DNA of 64,000 nt from Thermoplasmatota archaeon (GTDB lineage: Archaea; Thermoplasmatota; Thermoplasmata; UBA10834), in contig JBFMHR010000004.1 in the NCBI GenBank assembly GCA_040751795.1, positions 192,001 to 256,000 of the forward strand, read 5' to 3'. Below the pieces are notes generated by a model. The model did no database searches. It was not told where the DNA came from and saw nothing but the letters and a program-made list of their open reading frames with translations. Of the stretch, positions 33,908 through 44,412 are shown piece by piece. The first letter of the stretch is position 1; the number at the start of each line of letters is the position of its first letter. The translations under genes were made by a program, and so were the position numbers.

Positions 33908-35803
33908 TCACACCGCGGGCAGCAGGACGTGGAACAGGGCCCCCTGCGACGGGTCGCCCTCCACGCGGTCCTCGACCCAGATGCGCCCGCCGTACTTGTC
34001 CACGATCGTGCGCACTATCGACAGCCCAAGGCCGATGCCCTTCCCGCCGGCCAGCCTCGGCGTGAAGCGCTCGAAGATCTGCTCCTTCTTCTCGTCGGGC
34101 ACCCCGACGCCCCTGTCCGCGACGGTGATGTCCCAGAACCTCTTGCCCTCCTCCGTGACGGGCGCTATCTCGATGTCGATCCTCACCGTCTCGTGCGGGT
34201 CGTACTTCACGGAGTTGCTCAGGAGGTTCTGGAAGAGGTCGTGGATGAGCTCGTTCCCCCGCACGAGGCACTGGCTCTCCGCGCACTTCGTGGTGATCTC
34301 CAGCTTCTTGTCCGTCCTGACGGCCCTCATCTCCTCCGCGAGGCTGGCGATGGTGGAGACGAGGTCCACGGTGAGCATCTTCTCGGAGCCCCTCTCGCGT
34401 ATGTAGATGAGCTTCCTGATGCGGTTGATGAGCTCGTTGCTCAGCTCGAGCTGCTTCATCGCGACGCCGATCGCCTTCTCCTTCAGCTCCGGCGAGGCCT
34501 CGGGCCTCGCCGCGACGTCCAGGTACGAGCCTATGCCGGTGTTGTAGTTGCTGATGTCGTGGAAGAGGAGCCTGTTCATCATGTCGAGGTCCTCGTTCGC
34601 CTGGACGGTCTCCCTGATCAGCTGGCTGTTCCTGAAGGCGAGGGAGATGATGGAGCTGAAGACGCTCATGAGCTCGAGGAGGTCCTTCTCGAACATGACG
34701 TCCCTCTGCCTGTCGGTCGCGTAGATGACGCCGACGACGTCGTTCGCGCGGTCCCTGAGGGGGACCGCGAAGAGGTCGAACCGGTCGTCCTCCTGCCCAG
34801 GCGCCTGCCCCGCCCGGTCAGGCCCATGGACGTCCGCCCCCGGCGCCTTGAAGGGCATCATCGAGGGCCGGTCCGCGGCGAGCTGCTTCGCCGGCGTCCA
34901 GTAGAGGTCGTCGGTGAACCTGAACATGTCGTCGCAGTCCCTGTACACCGCGTCCCTGGTCAGGGCCTCCTCCTTGTCGGGGAGGCCGCTGGGCGAAATG
35001 AAGACATACCTGCTGGCGCGCGCGTCCCAAAGCGCCCCCCGGGCCTTCATGAACCCCAGCTCGGACGTCAGGAAGTCCGTCGCGGTCAGCAGTATCAGCT
35101 CCCCCCTCCTGAGGGAGACCATCCTCGTCGCTATGTTGAGCATCTTCGCGAATATCCTGGCCCTGCTGCTGTTCGCTGCCAGGAGGGCCTCCTGCGAGCG
35201 CCACACGCCGGCGAGTTCCAGGGCGACCGAGGCGATCGCCGCCAGGACCTCCACCCTGGACACGACCTCCTTGGACGGTATCATGCCGTCCGTGGTCTCG
35301 AGGATCTCGAGGGCGCCCAGCTCCCTCCCGTCCTTGTCGAACAGGATGGTGTCGATGAAGTCCATCATGTGCCAGTGCGCCGGCGATTCCCTGGGGGGGA
35401 CCTCCTGGGGGAAGCCCCGGTAGAACGCCGAGTCGAAGTCGTCGATCTTGACGTTCTCGCCCGGCGCGAGGTAGGTCAGGGCCCCCAGCTTCCTGTAGAC
35501 CTGGAGGGTCTCGTCCCACGAGTCCCTCGAGTAGGTCACGGACATGATGTCCCTCGCCTGGTCCTCCGGGTACCCGACGACGAACTTGATGTGCCACTCG
35601 CCCGTGCTCCGGTCGGTGACGTAGATGACGAGCTTCCTGATGGGGAACAGCGTCATCATCGAGCGGCCTATGGTCTCGAGGATGCGGTCCTCGTCCTTGT
35701 TGTAGAGCACCGCCAGGGCTATGTCGAGCACCCTGCTCGCCAGGGCCGTCTCCTCGGCGGCGGGGGCCGGGCGCGGCGCGGTGTCCGTTGGGTCCCCTTC
35801 CAT
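33908..35803 (-). CDS. Cytoplasmic GAF-domain sensor histidine kinase
   Basis: HDISN H-box, NLLSNSVKY, DRGVG, GIGLGL; GAF-like N-terminal region; start approximate. Confidence 0.9.
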   Translation of the reverse strand: MEGDPTDTAPRPAPAAEETALASRVLDIALAVLYNKDEDRILETIGRSMMTLFPIRKLVIYVTDRSTGEWHIKFVVGYPEDQARDIMSVTYSRDSWDETLQVYRKLGALTYLAPGENVKIDDFDSAFYRGFPQEVPPRESPAHWHMMDFIDTILFDKDGRELGALEILETTDGMIPSKEVVSRVEVLAAIASVALELAGVWRSQEALLAANSSRARIFAKMLNIATRMVSLRRGELILLTATDFLTSELGFMKARGALWDARASRYVFISPSGLPDKEEALTRDAVYRDCDDMFRFTDDLYWTPAKQLAADRPSMMPFKAPGADVHGPDRAGQAPGQEDDRFDLFAVPLRDRANDVVGVIYATDRQRDVMFEKDLLELMSVFSSIISLAFRNSQLIRETVQANEDLDMMNRLLFHDISNYNTGIGSYLDVAARPEASPELKEKAIGVAMKQLELSNELINRIRKLIYIRERGSEKMLTVDLVSTIASLAEEMRAVRTDKKLEITTKCAESQCLVRGNELIHDLFQNLLSNSVKYDPHETVRIDIEIAPVTEEGKRFWDITVADRGVGVPDEKKEQIFERFTPRLAGGKGIGLGLSIVRTIVDKYGGRIWVEDRVEGDPSQGALFHVLLPAV

Positions 35804-35957
35804 GCTACCGGGGCGGGTATAGGCATACCTGAATATTAACCGCTCAGTCACCAGTCGCCCCGCCAGGTTGCGCGGCCGCGCGGGACGGCCCCACGATGCC
35901 CCTAAATAGGGGGAACATATACCCCATTTCAGGAAAGGAGGCCGAGGGGGCCCTGCG

Positions 35958-37259
35958 ATGAGAAAGTGGAAGGAGATACCGCTCTACAAGGACGTCACCG
36001 CGAAGCAGTGGTCTGACTGGAAGTGGCAGGTCAAGAACCGGATAACCGACGTCGAGACGTTGGCGAAGGTCATCAACCTGTCCGATGAGGAGAAGGACGA
36101 GATACGCAACTCGACGAAGTACCTCCGCATGGCCATAACGCCCTACTACGCCAGCCTCATGGACCCGGACGACCCGGAGGACCCCGTGAGGAAGCAGGCC
36201 GTCCCGACGTCGCACGAGCTGCACGTGACCAAGGACGACATGGAGGACACCGTGGGCGAGACCACCGACGCGCCGCACGAGGGCCTGACCCACAGGTACC
36301 CCGACAGGGTCCTGTTCCTCCTGACGGACCAGTGCAGCATGTACTGCAGGCACTGCTGCAGGCGGAGGATCGTCGGCACGACCGACCACGCCCGCGGCTG
36401 GGACGAGATCAAGGAGGGCATAGACTACATCAGGGACACGCCCGAGGTCAGGGACGTCCTCCTCTCCGGCGGCGACGGACTGCTGGTCTCGGACCAGCTC
36501 CTGGAGAAGGTCATACGCGAGCTGAGGAAGATCAAGCACGTCCAGATCATCAGGATCGGCTCCAGGACCCCCGTGGTCATGCCGCAGAGGATCACCCCCG
36601 CGCTCGTCAGGATGCTGCGGAAATACCACCCGATCTGGCTCAACACCCACTTCAACCACCCGAAGGAGGTCACGCCCGAGTCGAGGAGGGCCGTCGAGAT
36701 GCTGGTGGACGCGGGCATCCCCGTGGGCAACCAGAGCGTGCTGCTGAAGGGCGTGAACGACTGCCCGGTCATCATGAAGAAGCTGGTGCAGGACCTGGTC
36801 TACATCAGGTGCAGGCCCTACTACATCTACCAGTGCGACATAGCCAAGGGTCTGGAGCACTTCAGGACGGCCACTGCCAAGGGGATAGAGCTCATCGAGG
36901 CCCTCAGGGGCCACACCTCCGGGTTCGCGGTGCCGGAGTTCGTCATCGACGCCCCCACGGGCGGCGGCAAGATCCCGGTCGGGCCGCAGTACCTCATATC
37001 GATGTCCGACAGGAGAGTCATCCTGAGGAACTACGAGGGCGGCATATTCCAGTTCCCCGAGGTCGAGGGCGACAGGGTCAGCAGGTGCCCGAAGGGGTGC
37101 AAGATGTGCGAGACCTACGGGCACCTCGAGTCCAGGGAGGGCGTCGCCGGCGTCCTCTCAGGACAGAAGCTGTGCCTCATCCCCGAGGGGACCCTGAGGG
37201 AGAAGCGCAGGGTCTCGTACCACAAGGGGAAGAAGGCCCCGAAGTGCACGGACGCCTGA
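35958..37259 (+). CDS. kamA: Lysine 2,3-aminomutase (radical SAM, PLP)
   Basis: THRYPDR, CSMYCRHC, LLSGGD, GGGKIP, C-terminal Zn cysteines. Confidence 0.92.
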   Translation: MRKWKEIPLYKDVTAKQWSDWKWQVKNRITDVETLAKVINLSDEEKDEIRNSTKYLRMAITPYYASLMDPDDPEDPVRKQAVPTSHELHVTKDDMEDTVGETTDAPHEGLTHRYPDRVLFLLTDQCSMYCRHCCRRRIVGTTDHARGWDEIKEGIDYIRDTPEVRDVLLSGGDGLLVSDQLLEKVIRELRKIKHVQIIRIGSRTPVVMPQRITPALVRMLRKYHPIWLNTHFNHPKEVTPESRRAVEMLVDAGIPVGNQSVLLKGVNDCPVIMKKLVQDLVYIRCRPYYIYQCDIAKGLEHFRTATAKGIELIEALRGHTSGFAVPEFVIDAPTGGGKIPVGPQYLISMSDRRVILRNYEGGIFQFPEVEGDRVSRCPKGCKMCETYGHLESREGVAGVLSGQKLCLIPEGTLREKRRVSYHKGKKAPKCTDA

Positions 37260-37286: not shown

Positions 37287-37967
37287 TCATCCCTTCTTCT
37301 CCAGCGACGCCCTGTGGATGACGTAGGTCCCCGAGTCCCTGGACCACCTGGCCTCGGCCTCCTCCACGTGCACCGACCTCGAGAAGCTCGGGCCGTCGAG
37401 GACGAAGGTCTCGATCTCCCCGCCCTCGCCGGAGACGCTGATCCGGTACCTGTCGCGGAGCCGCTCGAGCTCCTTGATCGTGTGCGAGGTGATGACCTTG
37501 CCCAGCCACCCCTCGTCGAACCCGTGGGCGTACACGCCCACGACCATGAACCTGAACCCCGCGCGGACCATGTCCTCGAGGAGCATGCTCTGGTCCTTCC
37601 TCCACAGCGGCGAGTGCAGGGGCCTCCCGAGCCTGTGGCAGATGCCGTTCAGCCTGGACCACTGGTAGTCCGACGCGATCGCGCCCGACACGAACCCGTC
37701 GACGTCCTCCCCCTTCATCAGCTCCTCGACGTCGTCGAGCTCCTTCTCCTCCTCCCCGGGGCTCTCCCTCGTCCTTATCGGGATGCCCATCGCCTCGGCC
37801 TGGAGCGACGTCCAGCGGATGTTGGGGACATGGAACATGTAGGAGTCCTCGGCGCGAGGGATGACGGTCAGGAGGCTCGCGACCTCCCACCCCTGCTGCT
37901 GCACCAGGTACGCCGCGTACGCGGAGTCCTTGCCCCCGGAGAACAGGACGGAGACCCTCATGGCCAC
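37287..37967 (-). CDS. Diphthine-ammonia ligase-like PP-loop ATPase (Dph6 family)
   Basis: SGGKDS, 'SYMFH', 'GAIASDYQ', 'GEGGEIET'. Confidence 0.9.
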   Translation of the reverse strand: MAMRVSVLFSGGKDSAYAAYLVQQQGWEVASLLTVIPRAEDSYMFHVPNIRWTSLQAEAMGIPIRTRESPGEEEKELDDVEELMKGEDVDGFVSGAIASDYQWSRLNGICHRLGRPLHSPLWRKDQSMLLEDMVRAGFRFMVVGVYAHGFDEGWLGKVITSHTIKELERLRDRYRISVSGEGGEIETFVLDGPSFSRSVHVEEAEARWSRDSGTYVIHRASLEKKG

Positions 37968-38001: not shown

Positions 38002-39576
38002 TCAGGTCACGAGGGTCGCGGTGAAGACGAAGGCCAGGACCGCGAGGAAGAACGCGACGAGCGGGACCCTGTACGGCCAGTGCTCGTTCAGCACCTGGCG
38101 CGCCCCGTAGTAGCCGAACGGGACGGCGGCGGCCAGCTCCAGGACGCCGGTCATCACCGCACCGCCGTCGAGGAGGAACAGGCCGTAGACGGCGAGGCCG
38201 GCCGCGAGAGTCACAGGCAGGGCGGCGACCAGGTGCGTCGACAGCTCCTTCGACCCGGTCCTCTCCCTGGCGGCCCTGACCCAGAGCAGGACGGCGCCGA
38301 GCAGCGCCACGGAGCCGGTGGCGACCCAGTCGATCGCCTCGGAGCACTCCCACGCCAGCTCAGTCGCGGTCAGCAGGAGGAGGAACCCCCCGACTGCGGC
38401 GAAGGCGTCGAGGACGGCGGCGTCCCTGTCCATGGGGTGGAACGTGGCCAGCACCACCATCACTGCGCCGGAAATCCCGACGATCAGCGCCATGCCCACC
38501 TCCACCTCCCCGAAGTCCACCAGGACCATGGTGGCGGCCGCGACGAGCATCATCAGGATGCCGGACGAGAGGAGGAAGTCGCCGCGGAACTCCGGGCGGT
38601 ACGCGTGGACCGCCACGTAGGCGAGGATCAGTGCACCTATGATCGGGGCCAGGGTCGTGAAGGTCTCCTCGGAGTCGATCTCAGCGACCGTGAAGTGCCA
38701 GACCGCGATGAGCCCGGGGCTCACGGCCAGCGTGTAGAACACCGCCCTCACCCTGCTCGCCGGCTTCACCGGCTTGCGCGCCTTGCGCCCACCCCTTCTC
38801 ATCAGGGCCCAGACCGCGATGCCTATGCCCACCGTCAGCAGGGCCAGGAACATCAGGCAGGGGATGTCCTCCAGCCAGAGGAACAGAACCAATGCGGCGG
38901 ATGCGGCCACCAAGGGGACGGCAGCGCTCGACCACCCCTGCCTGGTTGGAGCAGGCGCCTCCTCGGCGGCCCCCTCCTTCCTCAGGGCGGAGACGATCCT
39001 GTACGGCCTCCCGCAGCCGGGGCAGTCGAACCCGACCTCGTCCTCCACGGACAGGTTGTCGACCTCGATCTGCTTCTTGCACGTCGGGCAGAACACGGAA
39101 ACGACCCTCTTCGCCGGGGAGGCCATGACGGCTATCTCGTCCCTGACGGGCCCCCCCCTGTCCATCTGGTTGATGACCGAGGCCAGGCTCGCCTTGCGCG
39201 CAGTCACGATCTCGGAGACCTTGAGGGTCCTGGTGCCGTCAGGGTCCTCGAACGTGACCTCGACCTCGAAGAGCTGCTGGCGCACCGAGGACGCGGCGTC
39301 CGCGCCCTTCGGCGTGACGCAGTAGGCGTTCTGCCTCCTGTCCGCTCCCTCGACGTGCCCCTTGACGCACTCGACGAGCCCGTCCTTCGCGAGCTCCTGC
39401 AGCGCGACCGCTACGTGGCTCCTGCGCAGGCCGAGGTGGTCAGACAGGCCCTTCTGCGTGACCTCGAACGGGAAGACGACATCGTCCGGCCCGCACCTGT
39501 GGAGGTACAGCTGGACGAGCACCTTCTCCCTCGCCTTGAGCCTCAGTCCCGCCTGGCCGTCCTCTCCTGCGCCCAA
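38002..39576 (-). CDS. Membrane protein with N-terminal winged HTH, Zn ribbon and many TM helices
   Basis: 'VTQKGLSDHLGLRRSHVAVALQEL...RQNAYCVTPKG' wHTH; CPTC/CPGC; hydrophobic C-terminal half. Confidence 0.8.
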   Translation of the reverse strand: MGAGEDGQAGLRLKAREKVLVQLYLHRCGPDDVVFPFEVTQKGLSDHLGLRRSHVAVALQELAKDGLVECVKGHVEGADRRQNAYCVTPKGADAASSVRQQLFEVEVTFEDPDGTRTLKVSEIVTARKASLASVINQMDRGGPVRDEIAVMASPAKRVVSVFCPTCKKQIEVDNLSVEDEVGFDCPGCGRPYRIVSALRKEGAAEEAPAPTRQGWSSAAVPLVAASAALVLFLWLEDIPCLMFLALLTVGIGIAVWALMRRGGRKARKPVKPASRVRAVFYTLAVSPGLIAVWHFTVAEIDSEETFTTLAPIIGALILAYVAVHAYRPEFRGDFLLSSGILMMLVAAATMVLVDFGEVEVGMALIVGISGAVMVVLATFHPMDRDAAVLDAFAAVGGFLLLLTATELAWECSEAIDWVATGSVALLGAVLLWVRAARERTGSKELSTHLVAALPVTLAAGLAVYGLFLLDGGAVMTGVLELAAAVPFGYYGARQVLNEHWPYRVPLVAFFLAVLAFVFTATLVT

Positions 39577-39643
39577 ATCCCGAACCCCTCGAACCGACCT
39601 GATGAATCGCCCGTGAGTTAATCCTTTGCCGGCGGGGGCGCCC

Positions 39644-42600
39644 TCACGACGCCTCGAACACCAGCGGCAGGGTCTCCGACCTGAGCTCCTCGGGGTTGTA
39701 CATGTCCCACGCGACGACCCCCTGGAGCGTGCTCGTGATGGGCATCTCCGCCACTAGCGAGTAGTCGAACTCGACGGCGGCGCCCGACACCACGTCGGTG
39801 ATGTACACCACGACCTGGCGGTCGTTGCAGTCGTACGAGGATATGACGCCCTGGGCGTCGAGCGCGTCGAACTCGGAGAGGTCGAACGCGAAGCCCATGG
39901 GCGCGCGCAGGTCGACGAGGACCATCTTGAGCATCTCCGCGGTCCCGTTGTACAGGAGGTAGAGGTGGGCCCTGAGCCTGTCGTCGACCGATATCGTCGT
40001 CGTGTCGTATGTGACCTCGAGGGTCAGGAACGGGGACGACTCCGGCTCGTCTGGCCAGGGGACGTACTGCTCCAGGAAGACCGAGTAGAGGACGGACCCG
40101 TCCCCCGTGCAGGAGACGGTCACGTTGGTGACGTTCGCGAGGTAGGGCCTGAGGTCGACGAGGTAGGTGACGTCCCTGTTGAACTCGCTCATGTCGATGG
40201 TCTCGACGACCGAGCCCTCGACGAGGACCTGGACCTGCACATCCTCGACGGAGTTCTCCCCGGCGACCGCGTCGAGGGCGTGGAACGCCACCACCGTGTC
40301 CTGGGTGGACGACCAGCCCCCGAGCTCGCCCCTGTGGTCGAGGAGGTACTTGACGGCCCCTTGGACGGTGGCGTGGTGCCCAGTCTCCCCGTGGAGGGCC
40401 ATGGCGGCGTAGCCCGTGGTCTCTATGATCCTCGGGGAGGAGCCTTCCCAGACGTAGTCGCCGTCGGAGATGAGGTTCACGCCGCCGCTCCAGTGCACGG
40501 TGCCGTTGTCGGCGATCTTGAGCTCCTCGAGCCTCTCCGCGATGTCGGCGCGGAGCGCGGAGGAGCCGTCGCCGGCCTGCAGCAGCAGGAGCGAGAGCGA
40601 GAGGCTGTACGGGTCGTCCTGTATCGTGGAGACCTCGTCCTCGACGAACTCGATCGCCGCCTGGATGTGCGGGTCGTCGCCCGGGACCCCCGAGTGCAGG
40701 AGCGCCCTCGCGATGTACCCTGTCGCCGCGACCTCCTTGGACTGGAGGACGGGGTTGTTGAACTCGTAGATGCCCCAGTCCGGGAACTCCCACGAGCCGT
40801 CGTCCTGCTGGATCGACATGAGCCAGCTCTGCATGTCCGTGACGATGTCCTCGTCGAGCCCGAAGCCCGCGTTGATGGCGTCCTGGAAGGCGATGAGGCC
40901 CCAGGAGGTCAGCCACGGGTGCACGTCCTCGTCCCCCGGGAACCAGACGATGCCCCTGCCCTCGCCGTTGTTCGCCTCGAGCAGGTACATCAGCTCGTGC
41001 TGGAGCCCCTGGTTCACGATGCTCTCGTATTCGAACATCATCTCGGGGGTGGCGCCGAGCTCCACGACGGTGGCGTAGGCCAGTATGTCAATCGAGAGCA
41101 TCGACAGGGACTGCTCCCCGCATCCGGACACGTGCTGGATGAACTCGTCCACGCCCTCGAGGAGGACGGCGTCTATGCCGCCCTGGACCTTGACCCAAGC
41201 GTTCGCGCTGCCCTCGACCATGTCAGGCTGGAGGTAGAGGGTGTGCTCCGCGCTGCCGTCGCCGACCTCGCCGTTGTAGAGCGTCTCGACCCTCTTGCCG
41301 TCGGGCACGACCTCCATCGGCCTGATGACGGCGTCCGAGGCCTCCGGCGAGGAGGCGAACACCGAGACCGTGTGCCACCCGACCTTCTCGGCGACGATCG
41401 TGAACGACACGGAGGTGACGTAGTTGGCCGGCACGGTCACTTCCTGCGCCGCGGGGGAGAGCAGGGTGAGCCATGTCTCGTCGGCCAGCGTCACGTCGAC
41501 GACCTGCTCCGTGTCGAGGTAGTTGTAGACCATGATGCTGAGCGGGAACTCGTCGCCCCTGACGACCGACGCCGGTATGTCCGGCTCGACGAAGAAGGGC
41601 TGGAACACCGTCACGGACCCGGAGCCCGTGCCGATCTGCCCGTCTGCTGTGGAGGCGATGACGTCCACCTGCCACGACGTGATCGAGTCAGGGGCGGTGA
41701 GGGATATGTTGGCCCAGCCTCCCTCGTCCGTCAGGAGGCAGGGGTTCCAGTACCACGTCTCAGGGAAGTACTGGCGCACTATCGACGGCCTTGAGGCCGA
41801 GCCTCCGCCGGCGTCGGTCGAGGTCTCGTCGCCGTAGGCGGTGTCCGTGTCCCAGCCGAAGTCCATGGAGGCCTCCTGAGGCACCATGTTCCACTCATCG
41901 GCGTTAGGGTTCCTCGGATCGAACTCGCCGTCCTGGCTGCTGCTCGTCCCGAACCCGAGGGTCATGACGTAGACCGCCGCCATGCCCGCCAATGCGAGGG
42001 CCACGACGACGACCGCGAGGGCGAGGACGGGCACGGCCGTCCTCCTCCCCTTCGTGCCTATGGCGATCATGAGCCCCAGCATTGCGCAGAGGTAGACGGC
42101 GAACCAGTATCCCATGGTCGCGTCCTCCCTGATCTGCTCGGCGGCGGCCAGGTTCTCCGGCCATGTGGTCGTCACGCGCGCCTCGTCCGTCTCGGGGATG
42201 ACCTCCGAGGTGTCGGAGGGGAGGGCGCCGACGCCCGCGTATACGTACGTGAGTATCTGGTACTGGGGGATGACGAACTCCGCGTCGAGCCCGAAGATGA
42301 TCTCCTCGAAGCCCTGGAACATGCTCCCGACCTCGTAGACGGCCTCGTCCACGACGGAGACGCCGAGCGCGGCCACCGCCGGCGACCCGGAGTATTCGGC
42401 GTAGAACGACAGGCCGACCTCGTCCCTCGGGTAGTAGGAATCGTTGTCGGCGCTCACAGAGACGGACAGCGTGGACGAGCCGCCCACGGAGAAGGTCACG
42501 GCGTCCCTCGTGACGCCCATGTCGGCCTCGATCTTGTAGACCCTGAGCTGCGCGAACGGCTCGGCGTCGGGCCCCATGGTGAGCTGCAGGGAGGCCTGCC

Positions 42601-44083
42601 CGTCGTCCAGCTGGACGACGCCCCTGTCCACGAGGTAGCCGCGAGAGACCAGGTCCCAGTACACGTTCCTGGTCATGGAGTCGCCGGAGTACATGATGTC
42701 GAAGGAGGCCGTGTCGCCGACGTCGTATGACGCCTGGTCGGCCACGACCTTCAGGCCCGTCGCGGACTCGACGTCGACGTAGACCACGGCTTCGCCGGAG
42801 GCGCTGCTCCCGCGGACTCGCGCGGAGGTCTGGCCATCATATGTGAATGTCAGCGCTGCGACTCCCCTCCCGTCGGTCACGGAGGAGGCCTCGTTGACGT
42901 AGTAGTTGCCCTTCAAGAGGCCAAGCTGGACGGTCGCGTTGGCCACCGGCTCGCCGTTGGGGGACCTTGCAATCACGTAGTACCTGGACTGCATCCCGTC
43001 GACGCAGCTGTCGGTGAGCACCGAGAGCACTAGTCCGCTCGGCGCCACGGGGATGACCCTGTACCTGACCTCCGAGTGGCCTGCGGTGTCCGTCACGGTG
43101 AGGTTGAGCTGGATGTACCCGTTCCCCCCGGTCTCCGACAGGCCCACGGCATACTCCACCGCCGGGACGGAGAAGACAGCCTCGCCGTCGTAGAGGGAGA
43201 ACGTGCCGGTGTAGTACGTCTCCCAGACACCCAGATATACGTTCGCCTCGACGTCCACCGTGCCGGCGACGGCCTCGCCGAAGAAGTACTCGGCCGAGAC
43301 GACCCCGTTGATGGGGTCGTCGACCTCGTACCAGTCTTTGGTGCCCAGGAGGTCCACCCGGAACTTGGGGAGGACGTAGTCCTTGACCGCCAGGGCCTTG
43401 GTGACGGTCCTCTCGCCGATCGTGGCGGATATCGTGTAAGTCCCCTGGTTGAGCTGGTCCGACAGCCACAGGTCGTACGCGCATATGCCGTACCCGTCGG
43501 GGGAGAGGAGCTTCTTGAAGATCTTGTCCCCGTTGGGGTCGAGCACCTCGGCGAGGAGCTGGGACTCCTGGGGAAGCGGGTCCATGCCCGCGTATGTCAG
43601 GAACCTCATGTGTATGGTGTCGCCGGGCTTGTAGACGGGCTTGTCGGTGGTGATCACGATCCTGACGCTGTCGTCGAGCACGGTGGTGGTCTCGACGACG
43701 TCCACGCCCGAGTTGACGACCAGCTTGACCTTGCCCGCGGCCGCGGGGAACTCTATGGTCGGGGCGGCGGAGCCGTCGGCGCCCGTCCTGCCCGACCAGA
43801 CGAGAGCGTCCGAGTCGTCGGTGACGAGCCTCACGTCGACCTCCTGACCTCCGACGGGCTCGCCGTCGCCGTCCATGGCGAAGACCATGATCGTCGACGG
43901 GCCGCCCGCGGCGACCCGGTCGGGCACGTAGGCCACCAGGTTGAGCTTGTTCGCGAGGTAGGCGTCGTCGACGTCCTCCAGGGCTATCCCGATGGCCCCG
44001 ACGGCCATCAGGGCCGTGATGAATGCCACCACGAGCCTCTCCTTCCTGTCCTTCTCGACCAACCGGGCGACGGCCTTCCTCAT
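39644..44083 (-). CDS. Alpha-2-macroglobulin family thioester protein, membrane anchored
   Basis: 'TDKPVYKPG', 'DYVLPKF', 'RQYFPETWYW', 'APDSITSW', thioester GCGEQ (41111-41125), 'GGWSSTQDT', 'DMYNPE'. Confidence 0.93.
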   Translation of the reverse strand: MRKAVARLVEKDRKERLVVAFITALMAVGAIGIALEDVDDAYLANKLNLVAYVPDRVAAGGPSTIMVFAMDGDGEPVGGQEVDVRLVTDDSDALVWSGRTGADGSAAPTIEFPAAAGKVKLVVNSGVDVVETTTVLDDSVRIVITTDKPVYKPGDTIHMRFLTYAGMDPLPQESQLLAEVLDPNGDKIFKKLLSPDGYGICAYDLWLSDQLNQGTYTISATIGERTVTKALAVKDYVLPKFRVDLLGTKDWYEVDDPINGVVSAEYFFGEAVAGTVDVEANVYLGVWETYYTGTFSLYDGEAVFSVPAVEYAVGLSETGGNGYIQLNLTVTDTAGHSEVRYRVIPVAPSGLVLSVLTDSCVDGMQSRYYVIARSPNGEPVANATVQLGLLKGNYYVNEASSVTDGRGVAALTFTYDGQTSARVRGSSASGEAVVYVDVESATGLKVVADQASYDVGDTASFDIMYSGDSMTRNVYWDLVSRGYLVDRGVVQLDDGQASLQLTMGPDAEPFAQLRVYKIEADMGVTRDAVTFSVGGSSTLSVSVSADNDSYYPRDEVGLSFYAEYSGSPAVAALGVSVVDEAVYEVGSMFQGFEEIIFGLDAEFVIPQYQILTYVYAGVGALPSDTSEVIPETDEARVTTTWPENLAAAEQIREDATMGYWFAVYLCAMLGLMIAIGTKGRRTAVPVLALAVVVVALALAGMAAVYVMTLGFGTSSSQDGEFDPRNPNADEWNMVPQEASMDFGWDTDTAYGDETSTDAGGGSASRPSIVRQYFPETWYWNPCLLTDEGGWANISLTAPDSITSWQVDVIASTADGQIGTGSGSVTVFQPFFVEPDIPASVVRGDEFPLSIMVYNYLDTEQVVDVTLADETWLTLLSPAAQEVTVPANYVTSVSFTIVAEKVGWHTVSVFASSPEASDAVIRPMEVVPDGKRVETLYNGEVGDGSAEHTLYLQPDMVEGSANAWVKVQGGIDAVLLEGVDEFIQHVSGCGEQSLSMLSIDILAYATVVELGATPEMMFEYESIVNQGLQHELMYLLEANNGEGRGIVWFPGDEDVHPWLTSWGLIAFQDAINAGFGLDEDIVTDMQSWLMSIQQDDGSWEFPDWGIYEFNNPVLQSKEVAATGYIARALLHSGVPGDDPHIQAAIEFVEDEVSTIQDDPYSLSLSLLLLQAGDGSSALRADIAERLEELKIADNGTVHWSGGVNLISDGDYVWEGSSPRIIETTGYAAMALHGETGHHATVQGAVKYLLDHRGELGGWSSTQDTVVAFHALDAVAGENSVEDVQVQVLVEGSVVETIDMSEFNRDVTYLVDLRPYLANVTNVTVSCTGDGSVLYSVFLEQYVPWPDEPESSPFLTLEVTYDTTTISVDDRLRAHLYLLYNGTAEMLKMVLVDLRAPMGFAFDLSEFDALDAQGVISSYDCNDRQVVVYITDVVSGAAVEFDYSLVAEMPITSTLQGVVAWDMYNPEELRSETLPLVFEAS

Positions 44084-44127
44084 GCTATCACTGATTTCGC
44101 CTACCGCCTCCGTCCTTCATGTACCCC

Positions 44128-44145
44128 CCCATGACATGTCATGGG
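44128..44145. promoter_or_regulatory. Perfect 18-bp palindrome CCCATGACATGTCATGGG upstream of the A2M gene
   Basis: Exact self-reverse-complement in the divergent intergenic region. Confidence 0.55.
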
Positions 44146-44196
44146 CCTGGGCGACATCTCGGGCCGGCGCGATGGGGTTTATGTACGGATACGCTA

Positions 44197-44412
44197 ATGC
44201 AGAAATCCGTGTACTACTGCCCCAAGTGCGACAGGACCGTGTCCAGGGAGCGCCTCGAGCAGATCGAGGCGGACCTGGTCGGGAGGTTCGGCAAGAGCTG
44301 CCTCGCGACCATGCGGTGCCCTGTGTGCGACACGGACTTCATCGACCTCGGGGATGTCCGGCCCGGGGGTGAGGGACACGTCGGCGAGGCGCGCCGCATC
44401 GAGAAGGGCTGA
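44197..44412 (+). CDS. Small zinc-ribbon protein
   Basis: CPKC and CPVC in 71 aa. Confidence 0.7.
   Translation: MQKSVYYCPKCDRTVSRERLEQIEADLVGRFGKSCLATMRCPVCDTDFIDLGDVRPGGEGHVGEARRIEKG

Follow-up and report, generated by a model that had tools for sequence, protein, structure and literature searches.

Introduction

Animal immunity has its classic 'spring-loaded' covalent traps in the alpha-2-macroglobulin (A2M), complement and TEP proteins, whose relatives in prokaryotes have barely been studied. In A2M and A2ML1, and also in the bacterial proteins ECAM and Salmonella A2M, cleavage of a bait segment leads to exposure of an internal thioester and covalent capture. Membrane attachment is known within the family: CD109 is tethered by a glycosylphosphatidylinositol (GPI) anchor, and ECAM and Salmonella A2M are membrane-anchored, monomer-type thioester protease traps on the outer face of the cytoplasmic membrane. 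Genes for these bacterial type I A2Ms are paired with a PBP1c-type gene. Here we describe an A2M-family gene from an uncultured Thermoplasmata archaeon, located on the minus strand of a 64,000-nt stretch of contig JBFMHR010000004.1 (the window), whose product, called P0001 below, has a predicted membrane hairpin at the place where a bait would be expected.

The main text of Makarova et al. 2021 (PMC8416519) reports 27 archaeal CxEQ proteins in 24 genomes, with signal peptides, describes the Methanomicrobia/Methanosarcinales forms as close to bacterial A2M, and links halobacterial A2M modules with the transcriptional regulator arCOG02808. P0001 resembles the archaeal A2Ms described there in being a thioester domain (TED) protein with an intact CxEQ. 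Within that main text the word 'Thermoplasma' has no occurrence, the six passages with 'transmembrane' concern other proteins, and neither a transmembrane (TM) insertion in the bait nor a membrane-embedded winged-helix partner is mentioned. A literature search found no description of a TM insertion or hairpin in an A2M bait, or of Thermoplasmata A2Ms. The paper by Makarova et al. was the only one it turned up on archaeal A2M homologues, and two preprints, one on CAGE and one on vent MAGs, proved unrelated.

Domain structure of P0001

The features of the gene are as follows, residue numbers being those of P0001 and coordinates those of the window.

39644-44083, minus strand: A2M-family thioester protein gene (P0001), 1479 aa plus stop, from the open reading frame (ORF), its translation, six Pfam domains and PDB matches
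43979-44035, minus strand: N-terminal hydrophobic segment, residues 17-35, a putative signal-anchor or an uncleaved or cleaved signal peptide (Kyte-Doolittle 2.62, basic N-terminus)
42284-43966, minus strand: N-terminal array of MG domains, residues ~40-600, including MG2, MG3 and A2M_BRD (Pfam; AlphaFold2 all-beta for 280-600)
42179-42286, minus strand: predicted disordered linker ahead of the hairpin, residues ~600-635 (model residues 321-356 have a predicted local distance difference test score, pLDDT, of <50 and lack secondary structure; the family alignment shows semi-conservation)
42050-42163, minus strand: hairpin helix 1, residues 641-678, with its hydrophobic predicted TM core at 657-675 (42059-42115) (AlphaFold2 helix at model residues 362-399; Kyte-Doolittle 1.93; W660 at least 90% conserved)
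42038-42058, minus strand: basic turn with KGRR, residues 676-682 (sequence; family loop median 5 aa, net charge +3)
41954-42037, minus strand: hairpin helix 2, residues 683-710 (AlphaFold2 helix at model residues 404-430; Kyte-Doolittle 2.87)
41786-41953, minus strand: likely bait, residues 711-766, an acidic linker that is disordered in the model (pLDDT 23-28, model residues 428-486) and hypervariable (length and charge variation in the family)
41753-41776, minus strand: RQYFPETW, residues 770-777, start of the conserved post-bait segment and equivalent of alpha'NT (invariance; alignment to human A2M and the C3b alpha' chain)
40274-41161, minus strand: TED, residues 975-1270, with GCGEQ (Pfam TED_complement, E 4e-28)
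40751-40768, minus strand: YEFNNP, residues 1106-1111, aligned with the His/Asn position at which the reactivity of the thioester is tuned (profile alignment)
39686-39928, minus strand: C-terminal domain of the A2M receptor-binding type, residues 1386-1466 (Pfam A2M_recep, 27.0 bits, cut-off 21.7)

Judged by its sequence and predicted fold, P0001 is a complete A2M/CD109-type thioester protein. MG2 (142-226), MG3 (236-282), A2M_BRD (444-584), A2M (776-866), TED (975-1270) and A2M_recep (1386-1466) all score above the Pfam gathering threshold, and the canonical domain order of the superfamily (MG array, A2M domain, TED, C-terminal domain) is present by Pfam, AlphaFold2 and Foldseek. The CxEQ motif is GCGEQ at residues 987-991 (41111-41125, a position checked by translation), and G987, C988, G989, E990 and Q991 are invariant across 30 relatives. 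In the same relatives there is no variation at R770, F773, P774, E775, T776 or W777, which belong to RQYFPETW, with FPETW starting at 773; the other short motifs discussed below are KGRR at 678-681 and EFNNP at 1107-1111.

The closest PDB sequences are human A2M (E 7e-65), A2ML1 (1e-58) and CD109 (8e-54). An AlphaFold2 model was made for residues 280-1479 using a 42-row alignment, and has a pLDDT of 77.4 and a predicted template modelling score of 0.65, its MG domains being all beta and its TED helical. Foldseek ranks native A2ML1, CD109 and A2M highest against this model (E 1e-56 to 6e-51), the range extending to 5e-49 with TEP1 and C5, and the TMq values are 0.42-0.45 for native forms of A2M-family proteins against 0.31-0.32 for activated forms, so that the body of the model is native-like. 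The bacterial type I A2Ms, E. coli ECAM/YfhM and Salmonella A2M (PDB 5a42 and 4u48), match the fold with TMq 0.36-0.37, with a sequence similarity that is weak (E 2e-4). On these comparisons P0001 is placed in the A2M/A2ML1/CD109 branch and not in the ECAM branch (7e-65 against 2e-4). It is worth adding that the animal proteins A2M, A2ML1 and CD109 match the clade of P0001 far better in sequence (E 1e-53 to 7e-65) than ECAM and Salmonella A2M do (2e-4), and that the clade keeps the C-terminal receptor-binding-type domain.

P0001 shares with human A2M, A2ML1 and CD109 the order of domains (MG array, BRD, A2M domain, CUB, TED, C-terminal domain), the GCGEQ motif, and FPETW immediately after the bait. 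It differs from them in having an archaeal host and a conserved membrane regulator, predicted as such, encoded next to it, and in being anchored, according to prediction, by TM helices, where A2M is secreted and CD109 has its GPI anchor. It lacks the lipobox and the pbpC-like neighbour of the ECAM type, and has instead the motif GCGEQ, a predicted TM hairpin in the bait and a different partner gene.

Kyte-Doolittle hydropathy in 19-residue windows has peaks at 17-35 (2.62), 657-675 (1.93) and 686-710 (2.87, the maximum of the protein), on a background with a median of 0.02 and a 99th percentile of 2.17. Residues 1-16, ahead of the first hydrophobic stretch, have seven K/R against three D/E. 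There is no lipobox cysteine at the N-terminus, the first Cys of the protein being residue 201; the basic stretch and a 19-aa hydrophobic segment are found instead, and an N-terminal hydrophobic segment is seen in most full-length relatives. The initial annotation of this DNA, which described a 1479-aa A2M-family protein with GCGEQ and an N-terminal anchor preceded by basic residues, is thus borne out by the ORF, Pfam and hydropathy.

A predicted membrane hairpin in the bait slot

The A2M_BRD domain ends at residue 584. From residue 767 onward, P0001 aligns in phmmer searches of PDB chains with the ETVRKYFPETW stretch of human A2M (residue 703 of 7von and 729 of 6tav), and also with residue 14 of the C3b alpha' chain. 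Since the sequence from 767 matches the post-bait stretch of A2M and the A2M_BRD domain stops at 584, the 585-766 insert, comprising the hairpin and its linkers, fills the slot occupied by the bait or by the ANA domain. In order, the slot holds a disordered linker (~36 aa), helix 1, a basic turn, helix 2, an acidic linker (~56 aa) and RQYFPETW. Alignment and model together indicate that the bait loop of A2M (the ANA domain in C3, C4 and C5) is replaced in P0001 by a linker-hairpin-linker insert, and this is the main point at which it departs from A2M, A2ML1 and CD109, with a predicted TM hairpin standing between two disordered linkers.

In the AlphaFold2 model two helices, 641-678 and 683-709, are joined by a turn and bordered by disordered stretches, 600-635 on one side and 707-765 (pLDDT 23-28) on the other. 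With two helices of at least 19 aa and the short, positively charged KGRR turn between them, the region has the pattern of a helical hairpin for membrane insertion, as predicted from hydropathy, the model and the turn sequence. The initial annotation had also proposed two further hydrophobic helices at ~41950-42115, and window positions 41954-42115 on the minus strand do translate to both of them. Its placing of the helices within the bait slot is upheld by the alignment to A2M and C3b and by the model, where the hairpin sits in the slot of a native-like A2M body. The positive-inside loop that it suggested is consistent with KGRR and with the family, and the acidic flexible stretch that it saw before RQYFPETW proves to be disordered, acidic, hypervariable and bait-like.

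Relatives were collected by a search of 5.8 billion proteins, giving P0002-P0094, a full-length clade with 35-93% identity in which the named members are Thermoplasmata/Thermoplasmatota metagenome-assembled genomes (MAGs). Hydrophobic segments were counted in 90 of the 94 proteins, leaving out four that are N-truncated, by a crude rule that takes any uncharged hydrophobic stretch of 16 aa or more in the 200 aa ahead of FPETW. By this rule 84 of the 90 have two segments, six have one and none has zero. The loop between the helices has a median length of 5 aa and a median net charge of +3, and between helix 2 and FPETW lie 35-114 aa of linker (median 51) with a median net charge of -8. What the family alignment conserves of the helices is only their hydrophobic character and the Trp with which helix 1 starts, and the linker after the hairpin cannot be aligned between subclades. 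The recurrence of the hairpin is not a matter of chance, and the family pattern is, from sequence, what one would expect if a genuine membrane hairpin had a bait-like segment behind it.

Residues 711-766 have the features of the bait of an A2M inhibitor: they are predicted to be disordered, they are hypervariable, and they end where the bait of human A2M ends. The ectodomain is acidic overall, with 218 D+E against 73 K+R. Halophily was considered as a reading of this composition, and was dropped because nothing supports it.

In C3, C4 and C5, the same slot carries the alpha-helical ANA domain, and cleavage just before the segment that aligns with residue 768 releases alpha'NT. P0001 has no Pfam match to ANA or C345C and lacks the catalytic His, and its own helical insert is predicted to be embedded in the membrane and not released as a mediator.

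The position that tunes the thioester

The initial annotation had likened EFNNP to the Asn of A2M, as opposed to the His of C3, at the position that determines the reactivity of the thioester. An alignment by a profile built from 29 family TEDs places the NN of human A2M and the His of CD109 on Tyr1106-Glu1107, and the His of A2ML1 on Glu1107; a single-sequence phmmer alignment places the tuning position at Tyr1106. The asparagines of EFNNP thus lie 2-4 residues downstream, although Asn1110 is invariant across the 30 relatives, and the A2M Asn/CD109 His position is Tyr/Glu in P0001. The equivalence with the A2M asparagine is therefore not supported, while the absence of a nearby His stands: there is none near the tuning position, in WGIYEFNNPVLQSKE of P0001. 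This makes a C3-type, His-assisted transfer unlikely and P0001 non-C3-like.

This result bears on a different possible function. C3b and TEP, and also the Gram-positive thioester adhesins, attach covalently to their targets, and P0001 could in the same way be an adhesin or opsonin, its activated thioester linking the cell or a surface protein to another cell, a virus or a substrate. The thioester motif is intact and the protein is predicted to be tethered to the membrane, so that a covalent product would stay on the cell. Archaeal A2M homologues are moreover discussed together with inter-microbial conflict systems in the main text of Makarova et al. 2021 (PMC8416519). However, the C3-type His for transfer to hydroxyl groups is missing, and both the set of domains and the best matches belong to the protease-inhibitor branch (A2M, A2ML1, CD109) and not to C3/C4. 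In addition, no conserved conflict-system genes are found around the A2M gene, the neighbours being of the housekeeping type and conserved only in the close clade. We therefore consider a role in covalent adhesion to be very improbable.

Distribution of the hairpin among A2Ms

The spread of the design was followed in 80 loci from species-representative genomes, 52 of them Thermoplasmatota-type and 28 others. The hairpin occurs throughout the Thermoplasmatota-type loci, including records labelled Methanomassiliicoccales, 'Methanobacteriota' and, in one case, 'Hydrothermarchaeota'. A two-helix insert with a basic loop is found at the same place in two Korarchaeia-type MAGs and one Desulfurococcales MAG (Thermoproteota), where the thioester motifs are CNEQ and CVEQ, and again in nine Chloroflexota loci (Caldilineaceae, Anaerolineae), whose proteins have a lipobox and GCFEQ and are lipoprotein A2Ms. 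The Methanosarcinales A2Ms (YGCGEQNMM, ~1400 aa) have the N-terminal segment only, and no hairpin. In an unrooted FastTree tree of 52 rows, which kept the hairpin columns and left out partial loci and most of the P-numbered proteins, the Methanosarcinales stand next to the Thermoplasmatota clade, and the hairpin trait must have changed at least twice. This tree speaks neither for nor against a single origin of the hairpin.

A library of representatives (1.84 billion proteins) was searched with residues 280-1479, which gave 12,310 matches at E <=1e-3, of which 1,742 reach E <=1e-30. The clade of P0001 makes up the top 34 clusters. In the next 116, TM-like segments were counted by a crude rule over the 450 aa that precede FPETW: 54 clusters have none and 34 have 1-11 (often 5-7), the remaining 28 being unplaceable or truncated. 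There is a hairpin in P0163, and P0154 and P0160 have multi-helix bundles in the bait slot. These bundles, in clusters at 28-33% identity, consist of about six or more hydrophobic helices.

A further kind of insert was seen in 29 of the 116 clusters, which have at the bait slot a segment beginning DPWG that resembles the pseudopilin G domain of type II secretion; one protein that bears it has a precomputed match to PF08334. The bacterial relatives with this segment (P0112-P0121 and the frame at L064:7548) have GCFEQ and are ~1630 aa long, and one of their loci is labelled Acidobacteria.

Within the phylum, an A2M at E <=1e-50 was found in 22 of 301 sampled genomes, this genome included, and in 18 of 138 genera, and the gene is therefore patchy. 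As to whether the architecture is already common, a point on which the initial annotation had made its own novelty depend, the answer is divided: it is common in the databases (Thermoplasmatota, Thermoproteota and Chloroflexota, with multi-TM forms elsewhere), but no published description was found. The hairpin design is widespread, one member of a broader, recurring theme of membrane-embedded baits, and apparently undescribed.

This distribution can also be read in a simpler way. The hairpin might serve only for anchoring and biogenesis, the two helices being a stop-transfer and a re-start signal that let the 1400-aa ectodomain be exported in two halves and fasten it to the membrane of a cell that has no outer compartment, with the acidic linker as the bait and the neighbouring regulator as an ordinary local transcription factor. 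Such a role would suit the poor conservation of the helix sequences, apart from their hydrophobicity and the starting Trp, as well as the occurrence of hairpin-bearing and multi-TM versions in archaea and in Chloroflexota, lineages that are not known to have an outer membrane. The Chloroflexota proteins carry the hairpin as well as a lipobox anchor. On the other hand, three phyla and the multi-TM variants share one point of insertion, and with the protein already fixed by an N-terminal anchor or a lipid, it has to be explained why a second anchor should stand exactly in the trigger loop. Together with the evidence on the partner gene given in the next section, this makes anchoring alone a rather improbable explanation.

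The downstream partner gene

The gene that follows the A2M gene, a conserved neighbour that the initial annotation did not mention, encodes a predicted membrane regulator.

38002-39576, minus strand (the same strand as the A2M gene): partner gene, 524 aa, 67 bp downstream of A2M, from the ORF, Pfam, AlphaFold2 and adjacency in relatives

No T-run is present in the 67-bp gap. The predicted protein has a winged helix at 15-103, a small domain, a C4 zinc ribbon at ~163-188 (beta), a disordered linker, and about 11 TM helices at 219-523 (AlphaFold2). Its model has a pLDDT of 80.6, with nine of the TM helices above 90 (helices 275-523), and all of the loops between helices are short. Pfam finds HTH_Crp_2, a Crp/MarR-like helix-turn-helix (HTH), at 30.2 bits against a cut-off of 27. 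VIA-align superimposes residues 1-105 on BldR/MarR-family chains with Z 11.6 and a root mean square deviation of 3.0-3.4 over 89 aligned residues, and the winged helix gives Z 10-11.6 with MarR/PadR regulators generally. The N-terminal fold is thus predicted to be a MarR/PadR-like winged helix-turn-helix, and the protein a regulator.

The TM domain (219-523) has no Pfam or NCBIfam-type match. The fold search with the partner listed winged-helix matches throughout and so hardly probed the TM domain, a search of a protein atlas gave a best score of 0.76 and no usable match, and a homologue search with the TM part found eight close relatives only, adding as sole annotation one 'MarR family' label. 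No conserved polar or catalytic signature pointing to a known signalling mechanism is present in the TM domain. A complex prediction of partner residues 195-524 with A2M residues 625-725, with both given as alignments and run without controls, gave a score of 0.12, below the mark of 0.32, which speaks neither for nor against contact.

With tblastn, matches to the partner were found in 36 of the 52 Thermoplasmatota-type loci, lying directly downstream of the A2M gene except in L043 (~1.3 kb) and L051 (~5 kb downstream). The adjacency persists where A2M identity is only 33-41% and other synteny has gone. A partner profile gave the HTH and TM parts adjacent to A2M in 34 of 49 evaluable Thermoplasmatota-type loci, with two more cut off, the other three of the 52 having no downstream DNA; in 13 of the 49 the partner is absent beside the A2M gene. 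Because this profile was built from 29 ORFs of the same loci, it is the tblastn count that provides independent evidence for the pairing. By profile, none of the 28 non-Thermoplasmatota loci has a partner (21 of these have at least 1.4 kb downstream).

At the level of genomes, the winged-helix domain alone occurs in 179 of the 301, with several paralogs in each, fused to many different C-termini. Of the full-length partner matches, all 12 among the 150 listed fall within the 22 A2M-positive genomes, there being 329 weaker matches beyond these 150. In a targeted search of five A2M-positive genomes, G004 and G016 had a full-length partner on another contig, G150 had a remnant beside its likewise truncated A2M gene, G162 had no full-length partner, and G090, which is 97% complete, had no match to the partner profile. 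Given these counts of adjacency and of genomes, including G090 and G162, the pairing is strong and not obligatory. For the anchoring explanation raised above, the abundance and varied fusions of the winged-helix relatives are as expected of an ordinary regulator, whereas it is the TM domain, and not just the winged helix, that tracks the A2M gene.

Several observations on this family stand apart from the question of pairing. Its winged-helix part (~150 aa) is present in several copies per Thermoplasmatota genome, with C-terminal frames of 250-1500 aa, and this genome has four matches, which include G000:C34:57518-57790 and G000:C23:110296-110667 outside the window. In a subclade without the partner, a long protein with a single N-terminal hydrophobic segment follows the A2M gene and may be an alternative partner; the candidates are L022:12838-16371 (1177 aa), L029:3692-5473 (593 aa) and L034:11191-12378 (>395 aa). 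On the complete chromosome of L048 (G150:C1:1744897-1747407), the A2M frame is 719 aa and the adjacent partner frame 141-144 aa, and the module looks degraded.

The gene pair invites a proposal in which the A2M is a protease sensor: a cut in the bait would shift the hairpin, the 11-helix domain of the partner would read this change, and the winged helix would switch genes. The pair is conserved, co-oriented and separated by short gaps, in relatives whose A2M identity spans 33-93%; among the matches listed, the partner TM domain occurs only in A2M-positive genomes; and the partner family is found only with the hairpin-bearing Thermoplasmatota clade, not with the hairpin-less Methanosarcinales A2Ms. 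Moreover, the loops of the partner are short and it has no extracellular domain, which means that its input must be intramembrane or cytoplasmic. Against this, the hairpin is found without the partner in the Thermoproteota and Chloroflexota loci (no partners at all), in the 13 Thermoplasmatota loci and in G090, the cytoplasmic loop of the hairpin would offer only about five residues, the TM domain has none of the conserved polar or catalytic residues of a known signalling mechanism, and adjacency alone is no proof of contact. We regard sensing of this kind as unlikely.

Proposed mechanism

The reading that we favour, and that we think is probably correct, is that P0001 is a surface protease trap pinned to the membrane, in which cutting of the bait leads to capture by the thioester, possibly with coupling to the neighbouring regulator. 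The N-terminus would be cytoplasmic, with the first hydrophobic segment crossing the membrane outward. MG1-MG6 would then be outside, the hairpin would dip into the membrane and out again with KGRR on the cytoplasmic face, and MG7, CUB, TED and the C-terminal domain would again be outside. With this topology the whole trap would sit on the outer side of the membrane, its trigger being the point at which it is stitched down.

An external protease would cut either of the exposed linkers, with the hypervariable acidic linker as its most likely target. The cut would free the post-bait segment from its membrane tether and the body would rearrange as in A2M or C3, exposing the Cys988-Gln991 thioester, which would react with amines of the protease, so that the attacker would be fixed covalently at the cell surface. 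A direct reaction with protease amines is suggested by the lack of a C3-type His. The hairpin would hold the bait at the membrane and keep the N-terminal product anchored, and it may also be a stopper, in the role played elsewhere by the ANA domain or the intact bait. That the co-oriented partner is a functional partner is less firmly indicated; it may control the locus according to the state of the envelope, or read the state of the hairpin within the membrane.

The initial annotation had suggested that cleavage could take place within the membrane. This part of its proposal is not supported, since the model has exposed, disordered chain on either side of the hairpin (600-635 and 707-765), and in the locus comparisons no intramembrane protease travels with the A2M gene.

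A number of observations weigh against the membrane-pinned trap. The hairpin itself is modelled with a pLDDT of 54-72, and its assignment as TM is a prediction from hydropathy, the distribution of charge, conservation and the AlphaFold2 helix call. The acidity of the linker is only modestly special, because the whole ectodomain is acidic. The existence of Methanosarcinales A2Ms without a hairpin implies that the hairpin is not needed for the core mechanism. As regards the possible coupling, the partner is missing beside the A2M gene in the 13 loci noted above and from the G090 genome, and the abundance of this type of winged-helix regulator could explain part of the apparent link.

Other neighbouring genes

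The remaining neighbours in the window are the following.

33908-35851, minus strand: histidine-kinase-type ATPase protein, downstream neighbour
35958-37259, plus strand: lysine 2,3-aminomutase-like radical SAM enzyme, downstream neighbour
37287-37967, minus strand: diphthamide-synthase-family (PP-loop) protein, downstream neighbour
44197-44412, plus strand: zinc-ribbon ORF, 71 aa (CPKC...CPVC), divergent and upstream of A2M

The zinc-ribbon ORF overlaps the annotated start of a creatininase-family ORF. It was rejected as part of a module, being conserved in nine close syntenic loci only. The diphthamide synthase-like, creatininase-family, RpiA and lysine aminomutase-like neighbours are likewise not part of one, since they are syntenic only in close relatives. 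The histidine-kinase-type ATPase gene, too, keeps its place in close relatives only. There is no PBP1c/pbpC-type neighbour at the locus, where the A2M gene is surrounded by the winged-helix membrane protein and housekeeping-type genes. Among the sequencing runs for window positions 38002-44200 no RNA run was listed and the DNA shares are all <=0.19, and no reading of expression or habitat was drawn from them.

Significance

These comparisons show the bait slot of the A2M superfamily to be a general hot spot for insertion: depending on the member, it holds the bait, the ANA domain, a pseudopilin-like domain, or a predicted TM hairpin or TM bundle. A large, conserved clade in which the trigger loop is predicted to lie in the membrane raises the question of how the spring is held and released when the bait is tethered, and the hairpin A2M offers a minimal system in which to study it, a monomer with two helices. 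The closeness of this clade to animal A2M and CD109 bears on the origin of the animal proteins.

It is tempting to go further, and to see the A2M and its partner as an archaeal two-component 'protease-activated receptor', and the membrane-stitched trigger loop as a means, ancient and widespread among prokaryotes, of coupling the cell to proteolysis outside it; we hold this broader proposal to be doubtful. If the coupling to the regulator were true, archaea would link proteolysis at their surface to the control of genes, which would be a new form of envelope-stress or defence sensing.

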